Shown: positions 8,737 to 55,591, numbered from the stretch's first letter. The stretch is 64,000 nucleotides of DNA from Gammaproteobacteria bacterium (GCA_965221695.1 OZ244905.1:1-64000); one strand, 5' to 3'. Program-made: numbers and translations. The notes: generated by a model not told the origin, from the sequence alone.

Positions 8737-8887
8737 GGAACCTCTGATTAAGTCAGAGGTTCCTGCGATACAGGGATGTATCGACAAAATCAGTGACGAA
8801 AAGTCATTGATTTTGAGAGCAAAACAAAAATCGCATTTTTGTTTTGCGTGCTCTGACAAGTCCAGGATGGACTTGTTCAGAGCTTTC
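8737..8887. mobile_element. 151 bp IS5-type MITE, copy 1
   Basis: Ends GGAACCTCTGA...TTCAGAGCTTTC, CTAA on both flanks, closely similar to the copies at 40385, 47098 and 48357. Confidence 0.85.
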
Positions 8888-10301
8888 CTAATTCTGAAAA
8901 AGCAGCCAGCGCTTCCTGGCGGGATTGGCGGACATCGATAACAGGATAAGGATAATCCTGTCCCAAGGTAACCTTGGCTGCAGCCAGGACCTCGCTGGGC
9001 GCGTCCCAGGGTGCGGCCAGGTAAGCATCCGGCAGGTTGGCCAATTCCGGCACATAGCGGCGGATATATTGCCCGTCGGGATCGAATTTCCGCGCTTGGG
9101 TAACCGGGTTGAAGATGCGGAAATACGGCGCCGCGTCGGCGCCACACCCGGCTATCCATTGCCAACCGGCGCTGTTATTGGCCAGGTCTGCATCAAACAA
9201 GCAATCCCAAAACCAGCGCTCGCCGTGATGCCAATGCAACCGCAGGTTCTTGACCAGAAAAGAGCCGACGATCATACGTACCCGGTTATGCATATAACCT
9301 GTTTGATACAACTCCCGCATACCGGCATCGACGATGGGGATGCCAGTCGTCCCGCGCTGCCAGCAACGCAGGTCGTCAGCGCTTTCACGCCAGTTAAAAT
9401 CGGCAAATTTACTCTGCAACGGTTGGGTGCGGAGTTGCGGGTGATGGTAGAGCAGGGAGTAGGAGAATTCCCGCCAGGCCAGTTCTGACTGGAAGGTAGC
9501 CAGGTTGGGATCATCGTCAGGCCGGATATCCTGCGCCTGATGCCAGCATTGGCGTGGCGATATTTCCCCAAAATGCAGATGCGGTGAAAGACGCGAAACA
9601 GATGCCCTGGCAGGGAAATTGCGTCCTTGCTTATAGTCGCGTATGCCCGACTCCAGAAATTCCGACCAGCGCGCCTGCGCGCCCGCCTCCCCAATTTCCC
9701 AGCCGGCAACCAGTTGCCGATGCCAGTCAAGTTCGGGCAGCAAGCCCAAATCATCGATGCGCAAGCTGTTTACCGAACCCGGGTAACAATCAGTCCTGTC
9801 GGGTATTGGCAATGGCAACGCAGGCGGCGGGGCCATGCCCAGGCAGCCGCGCCGGTAAAACGGTGTAAACACCTTGTAGTGAGTCCCATCCGGCTTGAGA
9901 TTTTCCCAAGGCTCCCATAACAACGAACCGTTAAAACTCTCGACGGCATGACCGGCCGCAGTCAGCGCCGCTTTAATGCGCATCTCCCGGTCAATGCGCC
10001 AGGGTTCATAACAGCGATTCCAGTAGACGGCCGGCGCCGCCACCTGCTTGGCCAATGCTGTTAACAGCGGTTCTGCCGGTCCGGAAAAACAGCGCAGGCC
10101 ACCGCCGAGGCTATCATTCAATGCCCGCAGCGAATGATGCAACCAGACCCGACTGGCGCTTCCCATGCGCTCGTCGCCGGCATCCTCATCATCAAGAATA
10201 TAAACAGGCAACACCGTGCCTTTGCTGCAAGCGGAATGAAAAGCCGGGTTGTCAGCCAGGCGCAAATCCTGGCGAAACCAGCAGATTATCGGCGCATTCA
10301 T
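8877..10301 (-). CDS. phrB: Deoxyribodipyrimidine photolyase (class I/III CPD)
   Basis: WFRQDLRLADNPA, SRLSPHLHFGEIS, ELAWREF, GYMHNRVRMIVGSFL, DADLANN, WQW, YFRIFNP. Confidence 0.93.
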   Translation of the reverse strand: MNAPIICWFRQDLRLADNPAFHSACSKGTVLPVYILDDEDAGDERMGSASRVWLHHSLRALNDSLGGGLRCFSGPAEPLLTALAKQVAAPAVYWNRCYEPWRIDREMRIKAALTAAGHAVESFNGSLLWEPWENLKPDGTHYKVFTPFYRRGCLGMAPPPALPLPIPDRTDCYPGSVNSLRIDDLGLLPELDWHRQLVAGWEIGEAGAQARWSEFLESGIRDYKQGRNFPARASVSRLSPHLHFGEISPRQCWHQAQDIRPDDDPNLATFQSELAWREFSYSLLYHHPQLRTQPLQSKFADFNWRESADDLRCWQRGTTGIPIVDAGMRELYQTGYMHNRVRMIVGSFLVKNLRLHWHHGERWFWDCLFDADLANNSAGWQWIAGCGADAAPYFRIFNPVTQARKFDPDGQYIRRYVPELANLPDAYLAAPWDAPSEVLAAAKVTLGQDYPYPVIDVRQSRQEALAAFSELGKL

Positions 10302-10356
10302 AGTGGTTCCATATTCACTGGTTGGACATGCTTCATTAACGGGCAGAGCTTATACG

Positions 10357-10627
10357 ACTAGTACTCTTTCAACTTAATTTTGACATGTTCAGAGCCACAC
10401 AGCGACGCCAAGACAAGGCGCAGTCCGCCGGTAATGGCGCGCCCTTGCCAAGGGCTGCAACGCCGTATTGGCGTCGCTGTGTGGCTCCCTGCGGGCGGGC
10501 CGGGAAGCGGTCGCCCGCGTCGTTGCGCCGCTTGGGAAGGGCGCGCCATTCCCTGCGCGCCGCGCCTTGCGCTCAACCGCTTCCCGACCCGCTGAATATG
10601 TCAAAATTAAGTTGAAAGAGTACTAGT
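10357..10627. mobile_element. ~270 bp MITE with 36 bp terminal inverted repeats
   Basis: ACTAGTACTCTTTCAACTTAATTTTGACATGTTCAG at 10357-10392 pairs with 10592-10627 (one mismatch), with CTAG at both ends. The interior is GC-rich with nested inverted repeats. Confidence 0.8.
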
Positions 10628-10770
10628 TCCCGGACGATCACTCATAAACCGATACGCAAAAGGGACAAAGCGGTAGAGAGGACTATAAAAGAAACCGGGG
10701 CACAAGTCACATAATTGAACCCGTCTCTCGGACTGGCGCGTCTTCGGAAAGCCAAGGGGACGCAAAGTAA

Positions 10771-11004
10771 TTGGAATATTCAGACATTATACTGGCCTAC
10801 CTGACCAATCGCTACTTCGGGGTGGCCAATTTCGGCAGGATTTACGGTATCCTGTTTGCCTCTTTTCTTGTCGGCACGTTCCTGGGACCTTACGCGTTCG
10901 GCCTGGCATTTGAGAGTTATAGGTCATACCGGGAGGTATTGATGTATGCTGTGTTGGTTATCCTCGTTTCGTCTGCGGTAATCTCGGTTATGATAAGACT
11001 GTAA
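10771..11004 (+). pseudogene. C-terminal fragment of an MFS transporter
   Basis: AYLTNRYFGVANFGRIYG...GPYAFGLAFESYRSY resembles the last helices of OFA-type MFS proteins. No upstream part is present. Confidence 0.6.
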
Positions 11005-11010
11005 AATAAC

Positions 11011-14943
<3,933 letters not shown>

Positions 14944-14969
14944 GTCCTGCCGCTATCATTTCAGTGAAC

Positions 14970-14994
14970 ATCTGATTGGTTCAGAGTCTCCTTA
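14970..14994. repeat. Isolated end of the 151 bp MITE family
   Basis: TTCAGAGTCTCC-TTAG resembles the MITE terminus plus its YTAR target. Confidence 0.4.
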
Positions 14995-24657: not shown

Positions 24658-24660
24658 CAG

Positions 24661-30249: not shown

Positions 30250-30280
30250 GGACACTCTGATTAAGTCAGAGTTTCCTTAA
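30246..30280. mobile_element. Minimal 27 bp derivative of the 151 bp MITE (two termini joined)
   Basis: TTAA-GGACACTCTGATTAAGTCAGAGTTTCC-TTAA. Confidence 0.7.
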
Positions 30281-37701: not shown

Positions 37702-39147
37702 ATGTCATACCAACTGATCAAAAAATTAAGAAAAGAACTGGGTAGAGACGCGGTCTTGTCAGGCCCTGATGCGCTCACAGCGGGAGGATATTTGCAGGTG
37801 GTGGGTAAGACGCCGGTCGGCGTGGTGTTGCCGGCGGACATTGAACAGTTGCGGGCGATACTGGCCATAGCTTCTGAAAGTAATGTGTCGTTATGGGTTC
37901 TGCCCAATACCGCCGCAAATGGAGGTATAGTCAGTTCCGCAACGGATAAGGATATCCTGGTCATCGATCAATCCCGAATGAACAGGATCGTGGAGGTCAA
38001 CGCCAAGGGCGCTTTCGCGCTGGTTGAACCGGGCGTGAGTTATATTCAACTGTATGACTATCTGCAGGAGAACAATACAGGCCTGTGGGTGGACTGCGAC
38101 AGGAACGGGCTGAATTCGGTTTCCGGCAGCATCAGCGCAAGAGAGTTTGGCTACACTGCCTACGGTGACCATACCATGATGCAGTGCGGCATGGAAATCA
38201 TGCTGGCTGACGGCGAGCTGGTGCGCCTGGGCATGGGGGCCATGCCGAAAAGCAACACCTGGCAACTTGCTAAATATGCCTATGGCCCTTATCTCGATGG
38301 CTTGTTTACCCAATCCGGTCTGGGTATCGTAACCAAAATGGGTGTATGGCTGATGCCGGAACCGCCGGCATACCAGCCTTTTGCAGTAACCCTGAAGGGC
38401 GATAGTGATCTTGCCCAGGCCATTGAGATATTGCGTTCGCTCAAGGTCAACGTCATTATTCCGAACACAGTTGTAATCAGCAATACCATCCTGGATGCTG
38501 CGCCTTATGCCGCGCGGGAGGATTTTGTTGACGGCATGAAAGTCGACACCAGGCGGCTGGCTGCCTGGCATGGCTTGGGTCAGTGGACCCTGTACGGCGC
38601 CTTGTATAATACGCCGCCCAACATCGATGTTCTATGGCCGATGGCGCGCAGCGCATTCTCCGGCATTCAGGGCGCAACGGTACTCGATCTGAAAACCCAA
38701 GCCGGCAATTCGGTTCTTTCCGGCAGGGAGGCGATGATGCGCGGTCGCCCCTCTGCAGCATTCAATTACCTCAATAACTGGTCTGGTGAAGCGTACCTTT
38801 ATGCTGGATTTGTCTCCACTATTGACGGGCGGCAGGCTTTAAAGATGAATAAACTGGCCGGCGATACGGTACGCAGCAGCGGCTTCGATTATCTGACGGA
38901 ATACGCTGTTGGCTGGCGTTCCATTATTCAGCGGGTATATCTGCCCTATCAACGCGCCACAGCATCCAAGGCGGCTGCGTGTCTTGACGCGCTCATCGAA
39001 GCGATGGCGAAACGGGGATTCGGAGTCAGTCAGATCAGCGCTGGCTACCTGGATAATGCTCTGACTCGTTACGATAACGTCGGCATGGCTGAACTACGCA
39101 GCAGGCTCAAGCAGGCTCTGGACCCCAGCCACCTGTTTGCCGGATAG
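37702..39147 (+). CDS. Second VAO/PCMH-family flavoprotein, divergent, no signal peptide
   Basis: VEPGVSYIQLY, GYTAYGDH, YGPYLDGLFTQSGLGIVTKMGVWLMPEPP, LKQALDP. Confidence 0.85.
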   Translation: MSYQLIKKLRKELGRDAVLSGPDALTAGGYLQVVGKTPVGVVLPADIEQLRAILAIASESNVSLWVLPNTAANGGIVSSATDKDILVIDQSRMNRIVEVNAKGAFALVEPGVSYIQLYDYLQENNTGLWVDCDRNGLNSVSGSISAREFGYTAYGDHTMMQCGMEIMLADGELVRLGMGAMPKSNTWQLAKYAYGPYLDGLFTQSGLGIVTKMGVWLMPEPPAYQPFAVTLKGDSDLAQAIEILRSLKVNVIIPNTVVISNTILDAAPYAAREDFVDGMKVDTRRLAAWHGLGQWTLYGALYNTPPNIDVLWPMARSAFSGIQGATVLDLKTQAGNSVLSGREAMMRGRPSAAFNYLNNWSGEAYLYAGFVSTIDGRQALKMNKLAGDTVRSSGFDYLTEYAVGWRSIIQRVYLPYQRATASKAAACLDALIEAMAKRGFGVSQISAGYLDNALTRYDNVGMAELRSRLKQALDPSHLFAG

Positions 39148-39280
39148 TTATCATTTCCGTTTTCACGAGGTTAGCCCGAATATCTCACCGATTCGCTTGT
39201 CAGCATCAGATAGATGTTTGCTGTCAATAAGTTATGGTAATCTGTCGAGTATGTTGCCATTACACACTGCGCTTGATGCG

Positions 39281-39590
39281 TTCATTGCGTCCATCCCTGG
39301 ACGCAACCCTGCGGGCGACCTTCGTCGTGCAAATCGGCTGTCCTGCCGATTTGTCTCGCTGGTCTTTTTTGCGTTAGCGGGCACATGTTCATTGCACACA
39401 TCCCTGTGTGCAACCCTGCGGGCGGCCTTCGCCGTGCAAATCGTCTATCCTGACGATTTGTCCCTCAACCAGAAGAACCACTATGCTTTCGGTCGCGAGC
39501 GCCCGCGTACTGACGCACAAATCCGCCTGGAGCGGATTTGGACATCCGAAGGATGCCCGAAGGGGGCGCCCCACGGATGGGGCGCATCAA
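39281..39590. repeat. Three copies of a ~75 bp multi-hairpin unit with GGA loops
   Basis: Units at 39281-39355 and 39388-39462 (minus sense) and 39516-39590 (plus sense) share ACAAAT-stem-GGA-stem-ATTTG...GAAGG...CCCGNAGGG...CANGGATG. Confidence 0.8.
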
Positions 39591-39669
39591 AAAATCCTCA
39601 GCGATCATCACATCAATCGGTGAGATATTCGGGTTAGTTGTACGGCAAAAGCGTCAAGGATGGCTTTTT

Positions 39670-39700
39670 TAGGAACCTCTGAGCAAGTCTCAGCGGTTCC
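39670..39700. repeat. Degenerate minimal derivative of the 151 bp MITE
   Basis: GGAACCTCTGAGCAAGTCTCAGCGGTTCC hairpin at the 3' end of ubiX. Confidence 0.5.
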
Positions 39701-39708
39701 AATATGTT

Positions 39709-40299
39709 TTATTCGGATTGCCCGGCAGTTTCCTTATTCACGCCGGCCCAGCGCTTGACGATACCGGGATCGATGTCAAACAGGTCCAGTACCCGTCCGA
39801 TACTGGCATTGACGATATCATCAATGGTCTGCGGCTTGTTGTAGAATGCCGGGATAGGCGGCGCAATGATTGCCCCGAGCAGCGATACGTCGTAGAACAG
39901 TTTGCAGTGCCCCGTGTGCAGCGGGGTCTCGCGGGGCATGATCACCAGACGCCTGCGCTCTTTGAGCGCCACATCAGCAGCCCGTACCAGCAGGTTATCG
40001 GCATAGGAATGGGTGATTGCAGAAAGGGTGCGCATAGAACAGGGGGCAACGATCATGCCGTCGGTTTTGAAAGAGCCGCTGGAAATGCTGGCTGCAATGT
40101 CCTTGATATTGTGTGTCACGTTCGCCAGGCCCTCCACGCTGCCAATGGTATGTTCCGTTTCAATGCCGATATTGAGTTTGGCTGCGCCGGTCATCACCAG
40201 GTGGGTTTCGATATCCGGCATAGCCGCCAGTACCTCAACCAGGCGGATGCCGTAAGGCAAACCGCTGGCGCCGGACATGCCGATGATTATGCGTTTCAT
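39709..40299 (-). CDS. ubiX: Flavin prenyltransferase UbiX (VdcB-like)
   Basis: IIGMSGASG, ASISSGSF, APCSMRTL, RAADVALKERRRL, PRETPLH, PAFYNKP. Confidence 0.93.
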   Translation of the reverse strand: MKRIIIGMSGASGLPYGIRLVEVLAAMPDIETHLVMTGAAKLNIGIETEHTIGSVEGLANVTHNIKDIAASISSGSFKTDGMIVAPCSMRTLSAITHSYADNLLVRAADVALKERRRLVIMPRETPLHTGHCKLFYDVSLLGAIIAPPIPAFYNKPQTIDDIVNASIGRVLDLFDIDPGIVKRWAGVNKETAGQSE

Positions 40300-40384
40300 G
40301 CGGGGCTCAGGTCAGATAGCAATATTTACACAGCAAATAATATTTATATACTATACTTATTCGCTGAAAAGATATATTTTTTAT

Positions 40385-40535
40385 GGAAACTCTGAACAAG
40401 TCCATCCTGGACTTGTCAGAGTACGGAAAACAAAAATGCGATTTTTGTTTTCCTCACAAAATCAATGCCATAGAGTCATTGATATTGACGATACATCCTT
40501 GTATCGTAGGAACCTCTGACTTAATCAGAGGTTCC
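40385..40535. mobile_element. 151 bp IS5-type MITE, copy 2 (opposite orientation to copy 1)
   Basis: GGAAACTCTGAACAAG...TCAGAGGTTCC, flanks TTAT and TTAG. Confidence 0.85.
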
Positions 40536-40611
40536 TTAGATAAAAGCTCTGTTTATATCAGACTTTCCGTAGGTAAAACATAACCGGCCTGTACAAAAGG
40601 GGAGACATTTA

Positions 40612-42747
40612 ATGGCTGCACAACTTAAAGAAACCTATTACGGCGGTTGCCCGCATGATTGTCCTGATACCTGTTCCATGGTATTCGAAGTTGAGGACGG
40701 CAAGCTCACCGGTGTGCACGGCAATCCCGAGCATCCGATGACCCGCGGAGGACTGTGCGTAAAACTTGATGATTATGAGAAACGTCACTACCATCCTGAC
40801 CGCGTGCTTTATCCGCTGCGCCGGACCGGACCCAAGGGCAGCAAACAATTTGAACGTATCTCCTGGGATGAGGCGCTGGATGAAGTCGTAAGTCGCTGGA
40901 AAGACATTATCGATAAATACGGCGCGCAGGCGATTGCCCCGTACAGTTACCTGGGACACCAGGGCTTGATTCATGGTCTGAACGGTGGCGACGCGTTTTT
41001 TAACAAGATGGGCGCCACGGTATGTGAACGTACCTTCTGTGGTGAAGGGTCGGCAACGGCCTGGGTGTTGACCAACGGTCCCACCAGCGGCGTAGACCCG
41101 GAAAGTTTCGCCTATTCCAAGTACATCATCATCTGGGGTTGCAACAGTGTCAGCACCAACCTGCACGCCTGGCATTATGTCAAGGACGCGAAGGATAACG
41201 GGGCCAAACTGGTGGTGATAGATCCCTACCGTTCGCGCACCGCCAGGCAGGCCGACTGGCATCTTGCCATCCGGCCCGGGACCGACGGCGCACTGGCGAT
41301 GGCGATGATCAATGTCATCATTGAAGAGAACCTGATCGACCAGGATTACGTGGACAACTATACCCTCGGCTTTGAGCAACTGGCTGCGCGGGCCAAGGAC
41401 CGCACACCGGAGTGGGCTGCCGGAGTTACCGGCCTCAGCGCTGAGGATATCCGCACCCTGGCACGTGAATATGCGGCCAATAACCCGGCCGCAATCCGCA
41501 TCGGCGTCGCCGTAGAGAGAAACTGGGGTGGTGGCCAGGCGATTCGCGCGATCAGTTGCCTGCCGTCCCTGACCGGCGCCTGGCGCGGGGTAGGGGGCGG
41601 AATTTACCAGATGACATTCTGGGAACATCCGTACAAGCTGGACGTGATTTCACAACCCCAGCTTATTCCGGAAGGCACGCGGGTCATGAACAACCTGCAG
41701 CTCGGCCGGGCGCTGACCGGCGAGTTGGACCTGGACCCGCCCATCATGTCCCTGATGTGCTGGAATTCCAACCCGGTTACCCAGGCGCCCGAAGGCGACA
41801 AGATTATCAAGGGCCTGGAGCGGGAAGACCTGTTCACGGTGTCGGCTGAACACTTTATCTCCGATACCGCGGCCTATGCGGATATCGTGCTGCCGGCCGC
41901 GATGGGCGCTGAGATGGAGGATATCATCCTGTCCTGGGGACACAACTACCTGACCTACAATACCCGCTGCGCCGAACCGCCGGGCGAGGTGTTGTCCAAT
42001 AACGAGATATTCAACCGCCTGGCGCAACGCATGGGCTATGAGGAAGACCGTTTCAAATGGTCCGACAGCGAGTGTCTGGAGCATTTCGTCGATTGGGATT
42101 CACCGGCCTGTGAAGGTCTCAGTGTGGACTACCTGCGCGAAAACGGCTTTGCGCGTATCAAGATTGGCGAGCCCCATGAGCGTGCGCCGCACAAGGAAGG
42201 CAACTTTCCCACGCCTTCTGGCAAGTGCGAGTTTTTCTCGGAAGCCGCAAGCAACGGCAACTTTGTTATTGCGCCGTTCCGGCAGATGTACGAGGAGATG
42301 CAACCCGGCAACAGCGAACCGCTGGACAGCCTGCCGGATTATGTCCCGTCGAAGGAGGCGCCGGAAACCAACCCGGAACTGGCGAAGAAATATCCGCTGA
42401 ATATCATCGCTCCCAAGAGCCATGGGTTCCTCAATTCCTGTTATGCCAACATGGACCACAAGATCAAGCGGCAGGGTGAGCAATTCGTGATGATCAGCGA
42501 GACGGACGCCGAAGCGCGCGGTATCGGCGAGGGCGACCCTGTGCGCGTCTTCAATGATCGTGGCGCGTTCGAGGTAATGGCCAAGGTCACCGACGACGTT
42601 AACCCAGGATTGGTGGTGTCATCCCTGGGCTATTGGCGGCAACTGAACAACGGCACCGCCAATGTGGTGTCGTCCGCGGACTTCGCCGACATGGGACATG
42701 CCCCCAGGGTATTCGACAGCCTGGTACAGGTAGAACGTATCGCCTGA
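40612..42747 (+). CDS. Molybdopterin (bis-MGD, DMSO reductase superfamily) oxidoreductase
   Basis: N-terminal CPHDCPDTC...GLCVK Fe-S motif, RISWDEAL, IRPGTDGAL, TAAYADIVLPA, C-terminal molybdopterin dinucleotide domain. No Tat signal. Confidence 0.9.
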   Translation: MAAQLKETYYGGCPHDCPDTCSMVFEVEDGKLTGVHGNPEHPMTRGGLCVKLDDYEKRHYHPDRVLYPLRRTGPKGSKQFERISWDEALDEVVSRWKDIIDKYGAQAIAPYSYLGHQGLIHGLNGGDAFFNKMGATVCERTFCGEGSATAWVLTNGPTSGVDPESFAYSKYIIIWGCNSVSTNLHAWHYVKDAKDNGAKLVVIDPYRSRTARQADWHLAIRPGTDGALAMAMINVIIEENLIDQDYVDNYTLGFEQLAARAKDRTPEWAAGVTGLSAEDIRTLAREYAANNPAAIRIGVAVERNWGGGQAIRAISCLPSLTGAWRGVGGGIYQMTFWEHPYKLDVISQPQLIPEGTRVMNNLQLGRALTGELDLDPPIMSLMCWNSNPVTQAPEGDKIIKGLEREDLFTVSAEHFISDTAAYADIVLPAAMGAEMEDIILSWGHNYLTYNTRCAEPPGEVLSNNEIFNRLAQRMGYEEDRFKWSDSECLEHFVDWDSPACEGLSVDYLRENGFARIKIGEPHERAPHKEGNFPTPSGKCEFFSEAASNGNFVIAPFRQMYEEMQPGNSEPLDSLPDYVPSKEAPETNPELAKKYPLNIIAPKSHGFLNSCYANMDHKIKRQGEQFVMISETDAEARGIGEGDPVRVFNDRGAFEVMAKVTDDVNPGLVVSSLGYWRQLNNGTANVVSSADFADMGHAPRVFDSLVQVERIA

Positions 42748-45789: not shown

Positions 45790-47082
45790 ATGACCGCTGA
45801 AACAATACTCGTAACAAACGCGCACATCTTTGACGGCCATAACCCGGAACTGTCGGATCGTTCCAATATCCTGCTCGCCGATGGCGAGATTAAGGAGATA
45901 TCCACCAGTAAGACCAGCGTCGGGAGCGACCATGTGGTCGATGCCGGAGGGCGCACCGTAATGCCGGGTTTGATCGACAACCATATCCATGTCTATATCC
46001 CTACCCTGGATACCACGGCGCTGTCCAGGATGCCGGATACTTATATTGCTCAGTACGCAAATGTTTTTTTGAACTCGACCCTGGACCGGGGGTTTACCAC
46101 TTTGCGCGATATCGGTGGCGGCGATGTCGGCGTCGCGCGCGCCATCGACCATGGACTGGTGCGCGCCCCCCGGTTTTATTATGCCGGCAAGATCATGTCG
46201 CAGACCGGCGGGCATGGCGACATGCGGCCTGGCTGGGAAATCAATCCCTGGGAGCAACTCTGCGCCTGTGGCAGTTATTCGACCAACCTGACCCGTGTTG
46301 TCGATGATCCGTTTGAGATGCGGCGCGCGGTGCGGGAAGAGCTGAGAAAAGGCTCTCATTGCATAAAGATTATGGCGTCGGGCGGCGTGGCCAGCCCCAA
46401 CGATCCGTTGCACCATACACAATTTACCGAAGAAGAAATCCGCGCCGCAGTGGATGAATGCACGCGCCAGGAAACCTATGTATCTGCGCATTGCCATCCG
46501 ACCGAGGCGGTCAGACGCTGTGTCGAGTTCGGCGTGCGCTGTATTGAGCATGCGACCTTGATTGACGAGGACACCGCGCAATATGTGGCCGCTGAGGGCG
46601 CTTACGTGGTGCCTACGTTTGCGGTGATACACGCATTGCACGAGGAAGGCGCGAAGTACGGCCTGCCGCCGGCCAGCCAGGAAAAGATCGACATGATCTA
46701 TGACCAAGCCCTGGGGGGGCTGGAAATCATGCGCAATGCCGGTGTCAAAATGGGACTGGGCACGGACTTGTTGGGTCCGCAACATGTGCGGCAATGCACC
46801 GAGTTCACTATTCGGAAAGAGGTGTTCACACCGTTCGAGATACTCCATCAGGCCACCGCAATGAATGCCGAGATCCTGATGGAACCCGACCGCCTTGGCT
46901 GTATCAGGGAGGGCGCGTTCGCCGACCTGCTGGTTGTGGATGGCAATCCCCTGGAAGACATTTCCCTGCTGGAACAGAATGGCGCAGCGTTGCCGGTAAT
47001 CATTCGCAAGGGCGAGTTGGTGAAATGCGAACTTGACGTTGCCAAAGGTGCAGTAAGAACGTTCAGTTGGCCTGCGACCTGA
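45790..47082 (+). CDS. Amidohydrolase (prolidase/Xaa-Pro dipeptidase-like subgroup)
   Basis: MPGLIDNHIH, GFTTLRDIGG, QTGGHGD, IKIMASGGV, AHCH, IEHA, GTD, GAFADLLVVDGNP. Confidence 0.9.
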   Translation: MTAETILVTNAHIFDGHNPELSDRSNILLADGEIKEISTSKTSVGSDHVVDAGGRTVMPGLIDNHIHVYIPTLDTTALSRMPDTYIAQYANVFLNSTLDRGFTTLRDIGGGDVGVARAIDHGLVRAPRFYYAGKIMSQTGGHGDMRPGWEINPWEQLCACGSYSTNLTRVVDDPFEMRRAVREELRKGSHCIKIMASGGVASPNDPLHHTQFTEEEIRAAVDECTRQETYVSAHCHPTEAVRRCVEFGVRCIEHATLIDEDTAQYVAAEGAYVVPTFAVIHALHEEGAKYGLPPASQEKIDMIYDQALGGLEIMRNAGVKMGLGTDLLGPQHVRQCTEFTIRKEVFTPFEILHQATAMNAEILMEPDRLGCIREGAFADLLVVDGNPLEDISLLEQNGAALPVIIRKGELVKCELDVAKGAVRTFSWPAT

Positions 47083-47097: not shown

Positions 47098-47248
47098 GGA
47101 AACTCTGAACAAGTCCATCCTGGACTTGTCAGAGTACGGAAAACAAAAATGTGATTTTTGTTTCCCTCACAAAATCAATGCCTTACAGACATTGATTTTG
47201 ACGATACATCCTTGTATCGTAGGAACCTCTAACTTAATCAGAGTTTCC
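47098..47248. mobile_element. 151 bp IS5-type MITE, copy 3
   Basis: Near-identical to copy 2, flanks CTAA and CCAA. Confidence 0.85.
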
Positions 47249-47303
47249 CCAAGAGATACAATGCTTGATGCGGAAGTTCGGCGCCTCCCTTACTGAGCAA
47301 ACC

Positions 47304-48356
47304 ATGCCGTGCCTATGGTTACGCGCTGAATCCAGGCCGCTCGAACGCAGGGTTGCGCTGACGCCTGCCAACGCGCAGGAGTTGATTGCAGCCGGGTTCA
47401 GCGTATCCGTTGAAGAATGCGATAACAGGATATTCGGGATTGGGCAATACCTGGAAGCAGGTTGTCGGGTTGTACCCCGCGCGTCCTGGCAGGATGCGCC
47501 CCGCGACTGTTATGTGATTGGCCTGAAAGAATTGCCGGAACCGTTGCCGGCGCTACGCCACAGGCATATCTATTTTGCCCATGCTTATAAACAGCAAAAA
47601 GGCTGGAAGGAACTGTTGGGTAATTTTGCTGAAGACGGCGGCTACCTGCTTGATCTGGAATATTTGCTGGACGATAACGGCCGGCGTATCGCCGCATTCG
47701 GTTACTGGGCTGGCTTTGCCGGCGCAGCGTTGGGCGTCAAGGCCTGGCTGAGACAACCGGGCCGGCTTGGGCCTGTCGGCAGTTACCGGAACAAAGACCA
47801 ATTGCTGGCCGAATTGTCAGCGACACTGGAAAAATCGGCGCTGAGGCCCAAAGTTATGATCATTGGGGCCAACGGGCGCTGCGGCAGCGGCGCCATGGAC
47901 TTCTACCGAACCCTGGGTATTGAAACGACATTATGGGACCTGGAGGAAACCAGTCATGGCGGGCCTTTCCATGAAATTCTGGATCACGACATTTTTCTGA
48001 ATTGTGTATTTGTCCGGTCAGTCATTCCGCCGTTCCTGACCTGGCAATTCCTGGAGCAGGCGCGCAGGCTGTCCGTAATCGTCGATATCAGTTGCGATCC
48101 AAATGGCGATTACAACCCGTTGCCGGTATATAATAAATGCACGACATTTTCCCGACCAACGATGCGCATTATCGCCAAACCCGCGCTGGACCTGGTAGCC
48201 ATTGATAATTTGCCATCCTTGCTGCCGCAAGAGAGCAGCGAAGACTTTTCATCCCAGTTGTTGGATGCCCTGACGCAGTTGCCCGACGGCAGGATATGGC
48301 AACGCGCCCTGAAAATATTTGAAGAGAAGAAAGCGGCGGCCCTCGCGATAAATTAA
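47304..48356 (+). CDS. Saccharopine dehydrogenase, lysine-forming (LYS1-like / lysine-ketoglutarate reductase)
   Basis: LWLRAESRPLERR..LTP, GLKELP, HIYFAHAYK, LDLEYL, AAFGYWAGFAG, GANGRCGSGA, IDNLPSLLPQESS. Confidence 0.88.
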   Translation: MPCLWLRAESRPLERRVALTPANAQELIAAGFSVSVEECDNRIFGIGQYLEAGCRVVPRASWQDAPRDCYVIGLKELPEPLPALRHRHIYFAHAYKQQKGWKELLGNFAEDGGYLLDLEYLLDDNGRRIAAFGYWAGFAGAALGVKAWLRQPGRLGPVGSYRNKDQLLAELSATLEKSALRPKVMIIGANGRCGSGAMDFYRTLGIETTLWDLEETSHGGPFHEILDHDIFLNCVFVRSVIPPFLTWQFLEQARRLSVIVDISCDPNGDYNPLPVYNKCTTFSRPTMRIIAKPALDLVAIDNLPSLLPQESSEDFSSQLLDALTQLPDGRIWQRALKIFEEKKAAALAIN

Positions 48357-48507
48357 TGAACCTCTGATTAAGTCAGAGGTTCCTACGATACAAGGATGTA
48401 TCGTCAATATCAATGACTGTAAGGCATTGATATTGTGAGGAAAACAAAAATCGCATTTTTGTTTTCCGTACTCTGACAAGTCCAGGATGGACTTGTTCAG
48501 AGTTTCC
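48357..48507. mobile_element. 151 bp IS5-type MITE, copy 4
   Basis: Same orientation as copy 1, with a perfect TTAA duplication on both flanks. Confidence 0.88.
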
Positions 48508-48530
48508 TTAATAAACAGGAGCCATAATAC

Positions 48531-49676
48531 GTGCAACGCATACACTGGCTAGGAGCAGGTTTGTCATCAATACCAGGGATACGCCGGTTGGCGCGTTCCG
48601 ATTGCCCGCTAATCGTCTGGAACAGGACTCTTGCCAAAGCGCAGGCTGCTATCGCGGACTCCGACAGCGGCGGCAACGATGCCCGGACACTGGATTGGAT
48701 GCAGCTTGCTTCCAATGTCATGCCTGGCGATATACTCGTATCCATGCTGCCTGCTGACATGCACTTGTCGGCGGCCCGGCTTTGCCTGGAGAAGCGCGCC
48801 CATTTCGTATCCTCGAGTTACATATCTGAAGACATAGCAGGGCTGAGTGAGCAGGTGAGCGCGGCAGGCTTATGCTTCGTCAACGAATGCGGGCTTGACC
48901 CGGGTCTGGATCACCTGTTTGCTCATGCTCTGTTGTATGAGTACCGTCACAGTGATGTGTTCAACGTGGAAAACTCGCTATCGTTCCAATCCTACTGCGG
49001 TGGTTTTCCGCTTGAGGCGGGCAGTTTCACTTACAAATTTTCCTGGTCACCCCTGGGTGTGTTGAAGGCGCTGGATACACCTGCCCGGTGGATAGCAAAC
49101 GGGCAAGAGCATTATACTGCCGCGCCTTACAGGAAGGTCGAAACCTACCGGGTAAACGGCGAACCTTTTGAAGCCTATCCCAACCGGGATTCGCTGCCGT
49201 TCATCAAACAGTATCAGATAGAGGATAACTGGAAAATCGAGAATTTCGTACGCGGCACTTTGCGCCTTCCCGGTTGGGCCAAAGCCTGGGAAGATATATT
49301 TCAAACGGTTGAGCAAGCAAGTGGCGAGGTAGGTACGCGGGCGTTGGCTGAATTGAGTGAGCAGTTATGGCAGCGCTATCAATATGCTGCGGGGGAACCG
49401 GATCGGGTCGTATTATGCGTCAGGGTAAGCGCCGCCGGCGCAAACGGCGGCAGGATATGGGGTCGGGAGTATCTTCTCGACAGCATCGGCAACGAGCGCG
49501 GCTCAGCTATGGCAAGACTGGTATCAATACCGGTTTCATTGGTGGTTGAAGCCATCCTTGACGGTGAAGTTAAGTCCGGCGTAGCGCCCGTGCCATCTGA
49601 CCAAGAACATATTGACAAGTGGATTGAGTTGCTGCGGGAAACCGGGGAAAATATCATACTGAGAGACTGGTTCTGA
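48531..49676 (+). CDS. Saccharopine dehydrogenase/reductase, glutamate-forming (LYS9-like)
   Basis: IHWLGAGLSS, VWNRT, NECGLDPGLDH, SYCGG, YKFSWSPLGVL, EAYPNRDS, RGTLR, SAMARLVS. Confidence 0.88.
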   Translation: MQRIHWLGAGLSSIPGIRRLARSDCPLIVWNRTLAKAQAAIADSDSGGNDARTLDWMQLASNVMPGDILVSMLPADMHLSAARLCLEKRAHFVSSSYISEDIAGLSEQVSAAGLCFVNECGLDPGLDHLFAHALLYEYRHSDVFNVENSLSFQSYCGGFPLEAGSFTYKFSWSPLGVLKALDTPARWIANGQEHYTAAPYRKVETYRVNGEPFEAYPNRDSLPFIKQYQIEDNWKIENFVRGTLRLPGWAKAWEDIFQTVEQASGEVGTRALAELSEQLWQRYQYAAGEPDRVVLCVRVSAAGANGGRIWGREYLLDSIGNERGSAMARLVSIPVSLVVEAILDGEVKSGVAPVPSDQEHIDKWIELLRETGENIILRDWF

Positions 49677-49699
49677 GATTTCTGTCCACTACTTGAACT

Positions 49700-49822: not shown

Positions 49823-49893
49823 AGGAATGGAAGATGTATAGCAGATTATCTGCGTATTCCGGCTAACGTGAACACTGACCAATTAACGCGTAC

Positions 49894-50226: not shown

Positions 50227-50277
50227 GAATTGTGACCGTCGTCAGCCTCTCTGTGCCATTTCGAGAAACTGAGCAGT

Positions 50278-50511
50278 CTACTCGTGAGGAGCAACTGTGG
50301 GTTCGGCATCTGTCGTCAGCTTTTCTGAGGCCAGTTTGATTAAATCAACTGCCTGTCCACGACTGACAGTAGGGAAATGATCGAGGAAGTAATCCAAGCT
50401 ATACCCATCTTCCAAGTGCTCCATCAGAATACGTATCGGCACGCGGGTGCCCTGAAAAACAGGCGTGCCGCCCAGAATATTCGGGTTTCTGTTAATTACA
50501 GCATTATTCAT
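50278..50511 (-). CDS. DUF433 antitoxin
   Basis: NPNILGGTPVFQGTRVPI...G.SLD.FLDHFPTV. Confidence 0.9.
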   Translation of the reverse strand: MNNAVINRNPNILGGTPVFQGTRVPIRILMEHLEDGYSLDYFLDHFPTVSRGQAVDLIKLASEKLTTDAEPTVAPHE

Positions 50512-50618
50512 ATATGTTACCTCGTCCCCAAGTGTAGCAATCGCATCCTGTTCTTTCCAGTATTATCAGGCCAAGCCAATTTAACAGGTCAAAGAGTCGC
50601 TGCAGTTAACCGAAACCT

Positions 50619-51623
50619 CTATTTCCACACTGCGCGGGCTACACGCAGCAGGTTGCCGCCCAGTATCTTCGCAATATCATCGTCCCGGTAGCCCATTCCA
50701 AGCAACGCGTCTACTATTTCCGGCGCTTGTTCGGGCTGCACGAATTTTATGCCGTCGGTGTAACCGCCATCCGCCGGAAAGGTCTGCGGATTCTGCCTGA
50801 CGTAGTCGTTCAACTCTTCCATGTCGAAGACATAATCGAGGCCGATGCCGGCATGGTCTATACCAGCTTGCTGCACGACGTAATCGATATGCCTGGCAAT
50901 GGTCTCTGAACGGGCGTCGTTCTCTCCAAGAAAAATACCGACGCCATTAACACAAACCACCCCGCCGGTGGCGGCACAGGCGCGGATGGCGTCATCGGTG
51001 ATATTGCGCTTGTGATCTCGCAAGGCAAGCGGGTTTGAATGGGAAAAAATGACCGGGTTCGAAGAATACTCCATCACATCCATCGTGGTGCGATAGCCGG
51101 TATGGCTGCAACAGACCACCATGCCTACCCGCGCCATTTCATCGAGTACTGCGCGGCCGAAGGCGGTCAGTCCTTTATCGTCATCCTGGCAACCGCCCCC
51201 AAGAGAGTTGTTCCGGTTGTATGCAATCAGCATCCAGCGGGCGCCGAGGTCGTAATACATTTGCACCATGCTGAGCTGATCGGCCAGGACACTACCGCCT
51301 TCAAGGTCGAAGAATACTCCGAGTTTGCCGTCGCTGACGGCCCGTTCTATATCATCGGTGGTTTCGATCAGCATGTAATCGTCAGAGTGTTGCAGGATCC
51401 AACACCGGAAAGCAGCCATGACCAGCAAGGTGTTTTCCCATGGAACGGCATCGAAACCCACATTCAATGAAACAACGTTAAAGCCGGAATCCCGGTAGCG
51501 CGCCAACTGCGGAAGAAATTCGGTATCATTGCCGCGCAGGGGCATGCAACCGTGGTTGTCCCATGCCAGGTTGCCGGCGAGAATTTGTTGTGCTTCAAGG
51601 CTTATCGCGTTTGTGGTCGTCAT
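50619..51623 (-). CDS. Membrane (renal-type) dipeptidase family, peptidase M19
   Basis: WDNHGC, DLEGG, YNRNN, GLTAFGR, CSHTG, FSHSN, HKRN, HIDY, GLDY, GGNLLRV. Confidence 0.88.
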   Translation of the reverse strand: MTTTNAISLEAQQILAGNLAWDNHGCMPLRGNDTEFLPQLARYRDSGFNVVSLNVGFDAVPWENTLLVMAAFRCWILQHSDDYMLIETTDDIERAVSDGKLGVFFDLEGGSVLADQLSMVQMYYDLGARWMLIAYNRNNSLGGGCQDDDKGLTAFGRAVLDEMARVGMVVCCSHTGYRTTMDVMEYSSNPVIFSHSNPLALRDHKRNITDDAIRACAATGGVVCVNGVGIFLGENDARSETIARHIDYVVQQAGIDHAGIGLDYVFDMEELNDYVRQNPQTFPADGGYTDGIKFVQPEQAPEIVDALLGMGYRDDDIAKILGGNLLRVARAVWK

Positions 51624-51718
51624 GGTGTCAGCATTCGACGTATGCTAGACTTTTTCCGATCTCTTTTCAGATAGTATAGAACTCCAAAAAATAAATATCG
51701 ACACGAGCGAACCCGAAA

Positions 51719-53743
51719 ATGCGGATTGCAGTTGATGTGGGTGGGACATTTACTGATGTCGTCGTGCTGGATGAACAAACCGGTGCGTTGCATTATGACA
51801 AGGTCGAAACAACGCCCGGTGACCCCTGCGCCGGTGTTGTTGGCGGTATCGGGAAGGCCGGCTCTGATCTCTCCAGGGTGGATATTTTCGTGCATGGCAC
51901 AACCCTGGGTCTCAATGCATTACTGACCCGTAGCGGCGCCGAACTGGCGATCATTACAACAAAGGGATTTCGCGATGTTTACCTGCTGGGACGCACCGAT
52001 CGGGAGCCGCTGTACAACCTGACATACCGAAAACCCGACCCGCTGGTCCCGCGCTACCGTATCTTTGAAGTCACGGAGCGGATGAATTACAAGGGAGAAG
52101 TATTGGTCGAACTTGACCGGCGGGAAGCAGCTTCACTGGGCACAAGGTTGAAGCAACAAGGAGTTCGCTCCGTGGCGGTTTGCCTGTTGCATTCCTATAT
52201 CAATCCTGCCCATGAACTGGTCCTGGCAGAGATACTGGCCGATGTATACCCAGGACTTTCCATTACTTTGTCGCACCGGTTAACCCGGGAGTATCGTGAG
52301 TACGAACGTACCAGTACGGCAGTCATAGATGCCTACATCAAACCATTGACGCGGACATACCTGGAAAAACTGGATTATGAACTGGACAGTCGGGGATTTG
52401 CCGGCTCTTTTCTGCTTACCCGGTCCGGCGGGGGCGCGATCACCGTTAATGCGGCAAAAGATGAGCCGGCCCACCTGATTCTGTCCGGTCCTGCAGGCGG
52501 AGTCATCGGGGCGACAGCCTTTGGCGCGCTGGTCAACGAACCGAACCTTGTCACTATCGACATGGGCGGCACCAGCCTTGATGCCTCGCTGATTGTTGCC
52601 GGCGAGCCCAGGGTGGAGACGCAGCAGCGTTTTCAGGGCTTGCCGATCGCAATCCCGGCCCTGGATATACATACCATAGGCGCCGGTGGAGGCAGCATAG
52701 CCTGGGTTGATGATGGCGGACACCTGCAGGTGGGTCCGCAAAGCGCGGGCGCCGTGCCGGGCCCTGCCTGTTATGCAAAGGGGGGTGAGGATGCAACCTT
52801 TACCGATGCCGCATTGGTGATGGGCTACCTGGATCCTGATAATTTTCTCGGTGGTGAGCTTGCGCTTAATGGTGCACGCGCACATCAGGCCGTTTCGAAG
52901 GTTGCCGGTGCGGTGCAACTTTCCGTGCAAGAGACAGCCGCAGGGATAATGCGCATCAGCGAGGCCAAGATTGCAGGCGCCGTCCGGGTCATTTCAATCG
53001 AGCAGGGACATCACCCAAAAGATTTCGCGCTGCTTGCCTTTGGAGGCGGAGGCGCTTTCGTTGCCACCAATATAGCCCGGGAGCTCGGTATCCCAAGGGT
53101 AATTATTCCGCCGGCGCCGGCTAATTTTTCCGCATTGGGCATGCTGATGGTAGACGTTACCCATGACTTGTCCCAGACATGTGTCATGGACCTGGATCAA
53201 CTCAAGGTAGAATCAATCAACGCTATTTTCGCCGAACTGGGCAGAAAAGGGCACGAAGCCCTGGAAAAAGACCAGGTGGACCCCGCAAACAGGCGCCTGG
53301 TTCCCATGGCTGAATTGCGTTATCAGGGACAGGAACACACCGTTAACCTGGTCTTTCCCACAGCGGAACTCGGCGTCCGGGATCGGGGGAAAATAGAAGC
53401 GTTATTTAATGTTGCCCATGAAAAACAGTACGGGCATGCGATGCAAGACCCTATCCAGATAGTGACCTTGCGCTTGCGCGCCCTGGGAATGCTGAGCCGT
53501 CCGGACCTGCCGAAACTCGATCGGACTATGGAACAGCCGATAAGCAATGGAAACAGACAAATTTACCGCGCCGGGAGCGGCGCCAGGCAAACCTATTGCA
53601 TATATCAGAGGGAAGATCTCAGGGCAGACCAGCAAATTCAGGGACCGGCCATCATAGAAGAGTCCACTTCGACTACAATACTACACACTGGTGATAGCCT
53701 GATTGTGGGCTTATATGGCGAACTGCTGGTGAATATCGGATAA
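51719..53743 (+). CDS. Hydantoinase/oxoprolinase subunit A, copy 1
   Basis: VDVGGTFTD, HGTT, EYERTST, SGPAGG, DMGGTS, IGAGGGSI, GPQSAGA.PGPACY. Confidence 0.92.
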   Translation: MRIAVDVGGTFTDVVVLDEQTGALHYDKVETTPGDPCAGVVGGIGKAGSDLSRVDIFVHGTTLGLNALLTRSGAELAIITTKGFRDVYLLGRTDREPLYNLTYRKPDPLVPRYRIFEVTERMNYKGEVLVELDRREAASLGTRLKQQGVRSVAVCLLHSYINPAHELVLAEILADVYPGLSITLSHRLTREYREYERTSTAVIDAYIKPLTRTYLEKLDYELDSRGFAGSFLLTRSGGGAITVNAAKDEPAHLILSGPAGGVIGATAFGALVNEPNLVTIDMGGTSLDASLIVAGEPRVETQQRFQGLPIAIPALDIHTIGAGGGSIAWVDDGGHLQVGPQSAGAVPGPACYAKGGEDATFTDAALVMGYLDPDNFLGGELALNGARAHQAVSKVAGAVQLSVQETAAGIMRISEAKIAGAVRVISIEQGHHPKDFALLAFGGGGAFVATNIARELGIPRVIIPPAPANFSALGMLMVDVTHDLSQTCVMDLDQLKVESINAIFAELGRKGHEALEKDQVDPANRRLVPMAELRYQGQEHTVNLVFPTAELGVRDRGKIEALFNVAHEKQYGHAMQDPIQIVTLRLRALGMLSRPDLPKLDRTMEQPISNGNRQIYRAGSGARQTYCIYQREDLRADQQIQGPAIIEESTSTTILHTGDSLIVGLYGELLVNIG

Positions 53744-53778
53744 TCCGTACCGGATGAAAAACTTGGGAGATCACAGAG

Positions 53779-55512
53779 ATGGCTGATGTCGACTCCATAA
53801 CCGTACAGGTTATACATAACTATTTGTTGTCGGCAGCGCGGGAAATGAACCGGAATCTCATGCGCACTGCCTACAGTACCCTGATATACGAAGTACATGA
53901 TTTTGGTCTCGGGCTTTATGACAGGGAATGCCGGTTGCTGGCCGAGGCGCCGGGGCTGGCTGTTTTTACCCGCAGCAATGACTATGGCCTGAATAAAATG
54001 GTCGAATTTCTAGGTCATGACGATATTCACCCCGGTGATGTGATCCTGCTCAATTACCCGTACTGGAGTTCAACCCACACCCTGGATGTGATGGCGGCAT
54101 CTCCTGTGTTTTACCGGGACGAGCTCGTGGGCTTTACTGCCGTGAAGGAGCATTGGCTGGACCTTGGGCAAAAAGATCCCGGTTACTGCCTTGATACCCT
54201 GGAACTTGCCCAGGAAGGGCTGGTCTTCCCCTGTTCCAAGATATATTCGAAGGGGGTGCTGAACAGGGAACTGGAGCAATTGATACGTTTTAACAGCCGC
54301 ATCCCGGACCGGGTCATCGGCGACATGAATGCGCAGGTTTCCGCCTGCCGGACCGGGGAACGGCGGGTCCGGGAACTGGTGGAAAAGTTTGGTGTAGATG
54401 TCTATACCGAAGCGGTCAGCGAGATTCTGGACCATGGCGAACGCCTGGCGCGCAAGCGGTTGGCGGCGTTGCCGGACGGCGTCTGGACTGCGGAGGATTA
54501 TGTTGATGATGACGGAGTAGAGCGGGACAAAAAAATGCGCTTGCAGGCCACGGTAACCATTGCCGGTGATGAAATGACGATAGACTGGACCGGGTCGGAT
54601 GATAAATGCAAAGGCCCGATGAACGTGCCGATAGGAACGACCGAAGGCGTATGCGCGCTGGTCTTCAAGTCGATTACCACCCCGGATACTCCCGCAAATG
54701 AAGGCAACTTTCGACCATTGCGGGTAATCGCCCCGGAAGGCTGCATTATGAACGCACAACCGCCGTCACCGACGTTCACCCTGTGGACGGCCCTGATCGC
54801 GCCCGAAGTGGTGACCAAGGCCTTGGCCAAGGGCATGCCCGACCGTATCCCGGCATGCAGTGGCGGTGATATCTTTTCCCTGATGGGAGTAGGCGCCCAT
54901 CCTGAGACCGGCAAGCTCTGGATTGAAAGCACCAATGAAGGCATCGGGTTTGGCGGGCATGCCGCCGATGATGGTGAGAGCGGCATTATGCACATGACCG
55001 AACCCGGTTGCCGCAACAACCCGGTTGAGGTGCTGGAAACCAAGGCCCCCTGGCTCATAGAAAACTACGGCTTGCGGGCCGATTCGGGAGGAGCCGGAAA
55101 ACATCGCGGGGGGCTTGGAATTACCCGCACCTACCGTTTTCTGTCAGATGCGTCTGCATTGACCCTGGTAAAAAAAACCAAGACCTCGCCGTGGGGCATG
55201 GCTGACGGCGAGGATGGGCAGGCGGGGGCTGTGATCGTGCGGCCCGGCACGGATCGGGAACAGGTGACCGGCGCCATATACGAGCAGGTGTCGGCGGGTG
55301 ACGTGATTATCAACCGGTCCGGCGGCGGTGGCGGTTGGGGTAATCCGCTGGAGCGGGATCCGTCACGGGTGCTTGACGATGTCAGGAATGAATTTGTGTC
55401 GGTTATTGCCGCCCGGGAGAAATATGGCGTCATTATCGATCCCAAGACCATGACTGTTGATGACATGGCGACAGATGCGTTGCGCGCCTCCATGTCATCG
55501 GCGCCGAATTAA
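53779..55512 (+). CDS. Hydantoinase/oxoprolinase subunit B, copy 1
   Basis: RTAYS..IYE..DF, NYPY..THTLD, HWLDLG, EG, DSGGAGKHRGG, GGGGWGNPLER. Confidence 0.92.
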   Translation: MADVDSITVQVIHNYLLSAAREMNRNLMRTAYSTLIYEVHDFGLGLYDRECRLLAEAPGLAVFTRSNDYGLNKMVEFLGHDDIHPGDVILLNYPYWSSTHTLDVMAASPVFYRDELVGFTAVKEHWLDLGQKDPGYCLDTLELAQEGLVFPCSKIYSKGVLNRELEQLIRFNSRIPDRVIGDMNAQVSACRTGERRVRELVEKFGVDVYTEAVSEILDHGERLARKRLAALPDGVWTAEDYVDDDGVERDKKMRLQATVTIAGDEMTIDWTGSDDKCKGPMNVPIGTTEGVCALVFKSITTPDTPANEGNFRPLRVIAPEGCIMNAQPPSPTFTLWTALIAPEVVTKALAKGMPDRIPACSGGDIFSLMGVGAHPETGKLWIESTNEGIGFGGHAADDGESGIMHMTEPGCRNNPVEVLETKAPWLIENYGLRADSGGAGKHRGGLGITRTYRFLSDASALTLVKKTKTSPWGMADGEDGQAGAVIVRPGTDREQVTGAIYEQVSAGDVIINRSGGGGGWGNPLERDPSRVLDDVRNEFVSVIAAREKYGVIIDPKTMTVDDMATDALRASMSSAPN

Positions 55513-55519
55513 AGCTATA

Positions 55520-55591
55520 GAGAGCAAAACAACAATCGCATTTTTGTTTTGTGTGCCCTGAAAAGTCCAGGATTGACTTGTCAGAGCTTCC
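55520..55591. mobile_element. Half copy of the 151 bp MITE
   Basis: GAGAGCAAAACAACAATCGCATTTTTGTTTTG...AAGTCCAGGATTGACTTGTCAGAGCTTCC-TTAA. Confidence 0.7.

Follow-up and report, generated by a model that had tools for sequence, protein, structure and literature searches.

Genes and MITE copies in the window

The whole 64,000-nt stretch of Gammaproteobacteria bacterium DNA analysed here, referred to below as the window (GCA_965221695.1 OZ244905.1:1-64000; G+C content 53.8%), carries four full copies, each of ~151 nt, of a MITE (miniature inverted-repeat transposable element) with IS5-like ends. The element forms a chain of five hairpins, two of which bear a GGA trinucleotide in the loop, in a context matching the consensus site of the CsrA/RsmA family; the strand carrying these loops is termed the GGA strand. 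The preliminary description had reported full copies starting at 8737, 40385, 47098 and 48357, and all four were recovered by repeat finding, alignment and hidden Markov model (HMM) searching (nhmmer E 1e-52 to 1e-54), with pairwise identities of 89-94% (Table 1). All the window copies are intergenic, among genes that include htpG, mutS, nhaA, psd, a 14-gene nuo operon and those for a large AAA/NACHT-type ATPase, a photolyase, UbiD/UbiX-type decarboxylases, a molybdopterin oxidoreductase, a sulfatase, several hydantoinase/caprolactamase pairs and a TonB receptor. The photolyase open reading frame (ORF) extends 11 nt into copy 1, its last codons and stop (8877-8887) being supplied by the right end of the MITE.

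The CTAA and TTAA target duplications first noted beside the termini are perfect around copies 1 and 4, respectively, with one mismatch each in the 4-bp duplications of copies 2 and 3. The stop codon of the AlaDH/PNT-like gene upstream of copy 4 falls within the duplicated TTAA. The GGA strand had been described as the sense strand of putative operons at copy 4 and at a partial copy near 55.5 kb, and it is so at both; among the remaining full copies, copy 3 is antisense to its neighbours, while copies 1 and 2 lie between convergent and divergent genes. The partial copy, which an HMM built from all sub-families places at 55514-55591, is located between two hydantoinase/caprolactamase-type genes, has its loop mutated to GGATTG and stops 5 nt short of the Shine-Dalgarno sequence of the downstream gene. 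Of the shorter fragments originally listed, the solo terminal hairpin at 30250 is confirmed, as is this partial copy, while those near 39670 and 14970 are weak matches that can be ranked only as probable and possible. No additional matches were obtained within the window with the all-sub-family HMM. Copies 3 and 4 (47098-48507) flank the AlaDH/PNT-like gene in inverted orientation, with their hairpin 1 ends facing the gene; their outer duplications differ (CTAA and TTAA), and the pair appears to have arisen by two independent insertions and not as a composite transposon.

Table 1. MITE copies, fragments and other features of the window, with positions counted from its first nucleotide
Feature	Position	Strand	Remarks
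839-aa AAA ATPase	6130-8649		With DUF4143; copy 1 just downstream
MITE copy 1, full	8737-8887	+	CTAA duplication on both sides; between convergent genes
Photolyase ORF	8877-10301	-	Overlaps right end of copy 1
288-bp palindromic MITE-like element	10345-10632		Between photolyase gene and next gene
Possible degenerate solo terminal hairpin	14965-14991		Very weak match, nhmmer E 0.95; followed by TTAG
Solo terminal hairpin, 27 nt	30250-30276		TTAA on both sides; 3' arm matches MITE right terminus
Second element	39172-39640		Inverted repeats of ~20 bp at 39172-39193 and 39615-39636
76-nt modules of second element	39280-39355, 39387-39462		Two tandem copies
CANGGANG beside second element	39572-39579, 39655-39662	+
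Probable degenerate solo terminal hairpin	39671-39699		Weak match, nhmmer E 0.4
ubiX-like gene	39709-40299	-	Neighbour of copy 2
MITE copy 2, full	40385-40535	-	GGA strand on minus; between divergent genes
Molybdopterin oxidoreductase gene	40612-42747	+	Neighbour of copy 2
Gene beside copy 3	45790-47082	+	Neighbour of copy 3
MITE copy 3, full	47098-47248	-	GGA strand antisense to co-directional neighbours
AlaDH/PNT-like gene	47265-48356	+	Neighbour of copies 3 and 4
MITE copy 4, full	48357-48507	+	TTAA duplication on both sides; GGA strand sense
Hairpin 2 of copy 4	48386-48403	+	GGA in loop; matches RUACARGGAUGU and CANGGANG
Hairpin 5 of copy 4	48476-48496	+	Loop GGA at 48485-48487; 3' arm is inner part of IS5-like terminal repeat
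Saccharopine-dehydrogenase-like gene	48531-49676		Neighbour of copy 4
MITE 3' partial copy	55497-55591	+	Model positions 56-151; hairpins 4 and 5; TTAA on both sides

Distribution of the family in uncultured Gammaproteobacteria

One scan of public genome contigs, anchored on the hairpin 1 core and the right-terminal TTCAGAG and leaving the three inner hairpins and both GGA loops free, yielded at least 88 further loci from at least 33 assemblies of uncultured Gammaproteobacteria, labelled as Pseudohongiella, Pseudomonadales, Acidiferrobacterales, Methylothermaceae, Chromatiales or plainly as Gammaproteobacteria. All family-wide counts given below refer to the window and the 88 loci listed, the true totals being at least these, and for all copies outside the window the selecting pattern imposed hairpin 1 and TTCAGAG. 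In this set nhmmer recognised 92 full copies, 147-153 nt in length, and ten partial matches. No gene matching a family is found inside any copy, and flanking genes overlap the ends by 36 nt at most. The nearest relatives of the window copies, among the matches listed, occur in assembly CBDCSC01. No flank common to the window and another locus was found among the 88 listed loci, and the left flank is different at each insertion. The alignment comprises 89 copies, two with internal insertions (L048 and L067) and one cut by a contig end (L064) having been left out; 85 of the aligned copies are distinct and were used for per-copy counts, and the 89 form 15 clusters at 88% identity, each of which was represented by one copy.

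A plasmid collection searched with blastn in distant mode gave no match to a MITE copy. At the gathering score, no Rfam family was matched in the whole window or in ten loci of other sub-families, and a search of one MITE copy at E up to 10 returned only noise, headed by STnc250 (22.5 bits against a gathering score of 42). Of the Csr/Rsm models, RsmV alone left a trace in that copy, a sub-match of 19 nt and 12 bits at E 0.2. In the literature searched, no description was found of a MITE family with CsrA/RsmA-type hairpins, and the exact 17-nt core does not occur; MITE and CsrA together retrieved only the Rfam 12 paper, which holds nothing relevant, and nothing was found on MITE, RsmA, stem-loop and GGA in combination or on Pseudohongiella together with CsrA. 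The family is real and structured, and is apparently undescribed so far.

Several loci depart from the standard form. Deletion derivatives consist of hairpins 1, 4 and 5 (L074) or of hairpins 2 and 5 (L038 and L046). Extra internal sequence within or in place of hairpin 4 in L048:1496-1657 and L067:1496-1657 represents nested insertions or replacements, and L031 combines hairpins 1-2 and the right terminus with an unrelated G+C-rich interior. In loci of the Pseudohongiella/Pseudomonadales sub-family (e.g. L017, L022, L032, L034, L058 and L061), the MITE often splits a recurring 20-nt palindrome at its central CTAG, the halves of which flank the element at ~1484-1495 and 1647-1658; this suggests that a REP-like repeat is a preferred insertion target in this sub-family.

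IS5-type ends and insertion sites

The repeat is certainly an IS5-type MITE, as its early assignment to the IS5 subgroup had it. Of the two ends of E. coli K-12 IS5, one agrees with the left end of the MITE at 11-12 of 16 positions and the other with the reverse-complemented right end at 15 of 19, GAACAAGTCC included. In all sub-families the terminal inverted repeats are GGAACCTCTGA on the left and, as reverse complement, GGAAACTCTGA on the right; as in IS5, they start with GGAA and differ from each other, one with GA(A/T)TAAG and the other with GAACAAGTCC. Perfect 4-bp target duplications surround 55 of 90 copies, most of the other 35 being off by one base, and 42 of the 55 conform to YTAR (TTAA 13, CTAG 11, CTAA 9 and TTAG 9), which is the target given for IS5 (PMC5009759). 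With MITEs of the IS5 group the element shares the absence of coding capacity and the large number of copies. It differs from IS5 in its interior, where covarying hairpins with fixed loop bases form a conserved chain, and is not merely a deleted insertion sequence.

The stop codon of a flanking gene lies within or abuts the duplicated target in 19 of the 92 copies, and 32 of the 92 are found 12 nt or less from the 3' end of a gene. Such landing just past stop codons and in short spacers follows from the target itself, because YTAR contains TAA and TAG and because YTAR sites are rare in this 54% G+C genome. Deletion between two near-identical direct repeats, the hairpin 1 3' arm and the right terminus, can account for the solo terminal hairpins; the 3' arm of the solo hairpin at 30250 is the right-terminus version, consistent with such an origin.

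No transposase was found in the window, and tblastn with E. coli InsH gave no match in the window and the 88 loci (305 kb), whole genomes lying outside that scope. The ORF beside the weak solo hairpin at 14965 was considered as the parental transposase gene and rejected, as it codes for an amidohydrolase. Mobilisation would probably depend on an IS5-like DDE transposase encoded elsewhere, which would recognise the 16-19-bp terminal repeats, and insertion at YTAR sites would generate the 4-bp duplication. A single-strand element of the IS200/IS605 or REP/RAYT type was also rejected, given the variable true duplications and the terminal inverted repeats.

Five-hairpin fold and strand asymmetry

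Copy 4 is predicted to form five hairpins on either strand, with z-scores of -9.6 and -11.1 relative to 200 shuffles. Five hairpins were also predicted by RNAalifold for the 89 aligned copies, with double compensatory changes in 24 of the 44 base pairs. The chain of hairpins with covarying stems had been proposed from two stem differences between copies 1 and 4, both of which are present as described, and it is now seen to covary strongly across the 89 copies. Paired cells make up 96.6% of the alignment at these positions, against 85.6% in shuffles and 36-47% when the partners are slid by 1-3 columns, and none of 500 shuffles reached the observed value on any pairing measure; the cells in these and the following conservation counts are not independent, as the copies share ancestry. 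In each of hairpins 1 and 5, a terminal repeat pairs with its own internal copy. The loop of hairpin 3 is a GNRA tetraloop (GUAA, GCAA, GAAA or GGAA) in 43 of the 85 distinct copies. Stems acting as half-sites for a DNA-binding dimer were rejected because their arms covary.

The two strands are not equivalent. Outside hairpin 1, G.U and A.C cells stand at 155:19 in the 85 distinct copies and at 33:9 in the 15 representatives. As this count used a structure predicted on the GGA strand, the reverse complement was put through the prediction as well. The GGA strand has a consensus energy of -45.6 kcal/mol and a structure conservation index of 0.59, compared with -28.2 kcal/mol and 0.39 for the reverse, and the G.U to A.C ratio on the pairs predicted for both strands is 29:14. 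These results point to selection on the five-hairpin fold on the GGA strand. Strand asymmetry and covariation fit RNA and single-stranded DNA alike and cannot tell the one from the other.

Conserved GGA loops and the CsrA/RsmA consensus

The GGA trinucleotide is kept in hairpin 2 in 84 of the 89 aligned copies and in hairpin 5 in 86 (12 and all 15 of the 15 representatives, respectively), with variable positions adjacent to it in the loop, and single-copy folds place it in the loop of both hairpins in nearly all of the 85 distinct copies. The motif CANGGANG is present at hairpin 2 in 82 of the 92 full copies and at hairpin 5 in 37, most of the copies lacking it at the latter having CCAGGATGG there instead. 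On the reverse strand there are 23 matches to CANGGANG, all in the stem formed by the terminal repeat and none in a loop. Hairpin 2 stems differ among the window, Chromatiales, Acidiferrobacterales and Pseudohongiella types, being wholly changed between sub-families, while the loop stays A-N-G-G-A-N closed by C-G.

Among the 15 representatives, pairwise identity averages 0.67 in stems and 0.70 at unpaired positions but is 0.87 in the GGA columns, the loop positions beside GGA ranging from 0.37 to 0.74. Within clusters, deviations from the consensus occur in 7 of 456 cells of the GGA columns, in 210 of 5472 stem cells and in 271 of 3730 cells of other unpaired positions (Fisher p 0.009 against stems and 1.3e-7 against other unpaired positions, for cells that are not independent).

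The consensus site of RsmE is (A/U)CANGGANG(U/A) (PMC6849547), and that obtained for CsrA by systematic evolution of ligands by exponential enrichment (SELEX) is RUACARGGAUGU, in which ACA and GGA are invariant and GGA is found in hairpin loops (PMC4347634). The MITE loop motif matches the RsmE consensus and the core of the CsrA SELEX consensus. An exact match to the SELEX consensus had been claimed for the element, and the core ACARGGATGT is found in all four full copies of the window; it occurs five times in the window against 0.2 expected, a number reached in none of 100 shuffles, and four of the five are the MITE copies. The hairpin with CAGGATG is likewise present as described. Both GGA loops lie on the same strand, whereas sites for a transposase would be expected to have inverted symmetry.

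Other repeats and neighbouring genes in the window

A second element with its own inverted repeats is located at 39172-39640. It contains two tandem copies of a 76-nt module, which are 86% identical and spaced 107 nt apart. Hairpins with GGA-containing loops are formed by the minus strand of the module, and one of them has the core ACAGGGATGT, as in hairpin 2 of the MITE; a module of 90% identity occurs in an unrelated genome (L045:2841-2918). No Rfam match was obtained for region 38900-40700 at E up to 1. The module may represent a further family of repeats with GGA hairpins, or else a small RNA of the Csr/Rsm type. On the plus strand beside this element (39540-39670), CANGGANG occurs twice, the second time in a weak hairpin that is followed by a T run; neither a terminator scan nor Rfam gave a match in 39540-39670. 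The 288-bp palindromic MITE-like element between the photolyase gene and the next gene has long terminal inverted repeats, its halves being 72% complementary over 280 nt, and a 56-nt piece of it matches locus L078 at 80%.

The 839-aa AAA ATPase encoded next to copy 1 partially matches the NACHT antiphage protein EruA, at 120 bits with a cut-off of 1000, and may be a defence-type NTPase.

Putative CsrA/RsmA binding and its alternatives

The best-supported reading of these data, tentative as it is, is that RNA of the GGA strand is a putative ligand of CsrA/RsmA. The GGA strand would be under selection to form the five hairpins when single-stranded, most probably as RNA, with the A-N-G-G-A-N loops of hairpins 2 and 5, closed by C-G, presenting what would be an optimal site for the CsrA/RsmA family, and with hairpin 3 usually bearing a GNRA-type cap. 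A copy read through in the GGA orientation would then bind a CsrA/RsmA dimer at hairpins 2 and 5. In cis, the adjacent cistron would be coupled to the Csr/Rsm system and, in sum, many copies would enlarge the pool of CsrA-binding RNA. We infer that the folded molecule is RNA and that CsrA/RsmA would bind it, and any regulatory or titrating effect is put forward on the same footing. A tblastn search with E. coli CsrA gave no match in the 305 kb of the window and the 88 loci, whole genomes again being outside that scope.

A number of observations weigh against binding of this kind. The first concerns orientation, for which flanking genes were called with a codon log-odds model trained on the annotated genes of the window; 30 of 40 random calls had a Pfam match at E of 1e-8 or less. 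A bias towards the sense orientation is not seen. Of the 92 copies, the GGA strand is sense in 23 and antisense in 24 of those between co-directional genes, the others lying between convergent (15) or divergent genes (9) or in a context not determined (21). Stricter thresholds for gene calling give 17:21 and 11:12, and orientation shows no link with local GC skew (41 and 41 copies). Random orientation implies that selection for sense transcription is not visible at the level of the single insertion, and hence that selection acts on the lineage of active copies or that the effect per copy is too weak to be seen at n=47. It is the main obstacle to a role in host transcripts. There is, moreover, no sigma-70-like promoter on the GGA strand of the window copies or of L058 and no terminator, no Rfam family matches any copy tested, and each copy has only two sites.

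Further difficulties lie in the element itself. The notion that the GGA loops are more conserved than other positions holds for the averages over stems and unpaired positions, but not for the TTGA of hairpin 3 or the runs of A and of T in hairpin 4, which are conserved as much as GGA or more. The 3' arm of hairpin 5 is within the terminal repeat, so that transposase binding constrains part of this hairpin and may contribute to its conservation. In a parental element with the layout of IS5, the transposase gene would have the GGA strand as its antisense strand; by the same analogy, the hairpins are unlikely to derive from the 5' leader of the parental transposase.

The strongest of the competing explanations, which is nevertheless somewhat unlikely, is that of a purely selfish structured MITE, in which hairpins and loops are needed by the active lineage at the DNA level, for which they could serve as single-stranded DNA hairpins or as sites for a host or transposase factor, and in which the match to CsrA is coincidental. 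Orientation that is random with regard to both genes and GC skew is what neutral insertions would show, the terminal repeats themselves build hairpins 1 and 5, and other blocks are as conserved as GGA. G.T wobbles and loops of the GNA/GNRA type are also tolerated in DNA hairpins. Against this, IS5-family DDE transposases act on double-stranded ends, and we know of no need for internal hairpins in IS5-family transposition. The free covariation of the stems does not fit paired half-sites, the two GGA loops are direct rather than inverted relative to the ends, and coincidence would have to account for a loop match to CANGGANG at eight positions, in the optimal hexaloop context, twice per element.

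An RNA-level element that acts without CsrA, in which the hairpin chain of a read-through transcript serves as a barrier to RNases or a processing signal, as in REP, ERIC and bcr1, and the loops are kept for stability or for another RNA-binding factor, is considered unlikely. It would agree with the strongly covarying fold, with the GNRA-type loops of hairpin 3 and with the location at gene ends noted above, and it has precedents in the effect of ERIC on RNase E cleavage and in the RNA-level compensatory changes of bcr1 (PMC3184786). It leaves unexplained, however, the fixed GGA and its closing C-G amid variable loop bases, as well as the presence of ACAGGGATGT in a hairpin loop of the unrelated second element of the window, and the missing orientation bias weighs on it as heavily as on CsrA/RsmA binding. 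Dispersed small-RNA genes, in which the copies or a few master copies with their own promoter would give rise to a ~150-nt RNA that antagonises CsrA through two sites like McaS, a CsrA-acting RNA that has two sites or more (PMC4347634), are very improbable: a hairpin at either end would shield a processed RNA and autonomous transcription would render random orientation immaterial, but the copies have no U-run terminator, the left flank changes with each insertion, and the sole promoter-like match is weak (9/12), on the opposite strand and restricted to the window sub-family.

A further proposal, which is doubtful at present, is that of a mobile module. A MITE lineage moving between gammaproteobacterial lineages would have evolved, and would keep by selection, two optimal CsrA/RsmA hairpins; insertions in the right orientation would wire neighbouring genes into the Csr/Rsm regulon, and hundreds of copies, a number implied by the density in the window, would buffer free CsrA across the genome in an expression-dependent manner. 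The second repeat of the window would be part of the same phenomenon. The dispersed CsrA sponge envisaged in the preliminary description is speculative.

Comparison with known systems

Like ERIC, bcr1, Correia and REP sequences, the MITE is a small intergenic repeat that would fold in transcripts. Compensatory changes maintain its fold as they do in bcr1, and its location at gene ends recalls ERIC (PMC3184786). It differs from these repeats in having no sequence or model similarity to them, in forming five separate hairpins rather than one long hairpin and in carrying a known protein-binding consensus in its loops; the main text of a 2011 review of structured repeats makes no reference to CsrA or RsmA (PMC3184786).

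With CsrB, CsrC, RsmX/Y/Z and McaS the MITE has in common GGA in hairpin loops and the match to both consensus sites. Its two sites per copy compare with 18 in CsrB and 9 in CsrC, McaS being the nearest in number (PMC4347634). Unlike these RNAs the MITE is not a dedicated gene and lacks a promoter and a terminator, so that it does not qualify as a sponge gene; it is also mobile, with terminal repeats and target duplications, and is without a match to the Rfam models of the Csr/Rsm RNAs.

Sterzenbach et al. reportedly described, in 2013, the titration of CsrA by an mRNA leader. The likeness lies in the fact that ordinary transcripts with good CsrA sites compete for the protein, and the difference in that a single mRNA is involved there and a mobile repeat family here.

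Biological significance

The usual view of MITEs is of junk in decay or of crude hairpins by which mRNAs are stabilised or cleaved. The family described here is distinct in that it occurs across poorly known Gammaproteobacteria, in at least 33 genomes at species level, in that compensatory change maintains its fold and in that the fixed loop bases of one strand spell the best-known CsrA/RsmA site. If binding is not real, the strand-specific loop bases, selected as they are in a DNA transposon whose insertions have no preferred orientation, still call for an explanation. If it is real, transposition would spread membership of a global post-transcriptional regulon and alter the titration of its master protein, and the MITE, should the proposal of a mobile module also be correct, would be a mobile module, at once cis-regulatory and a sponge, for a regulator that acts globally at the post-transcriptional level.

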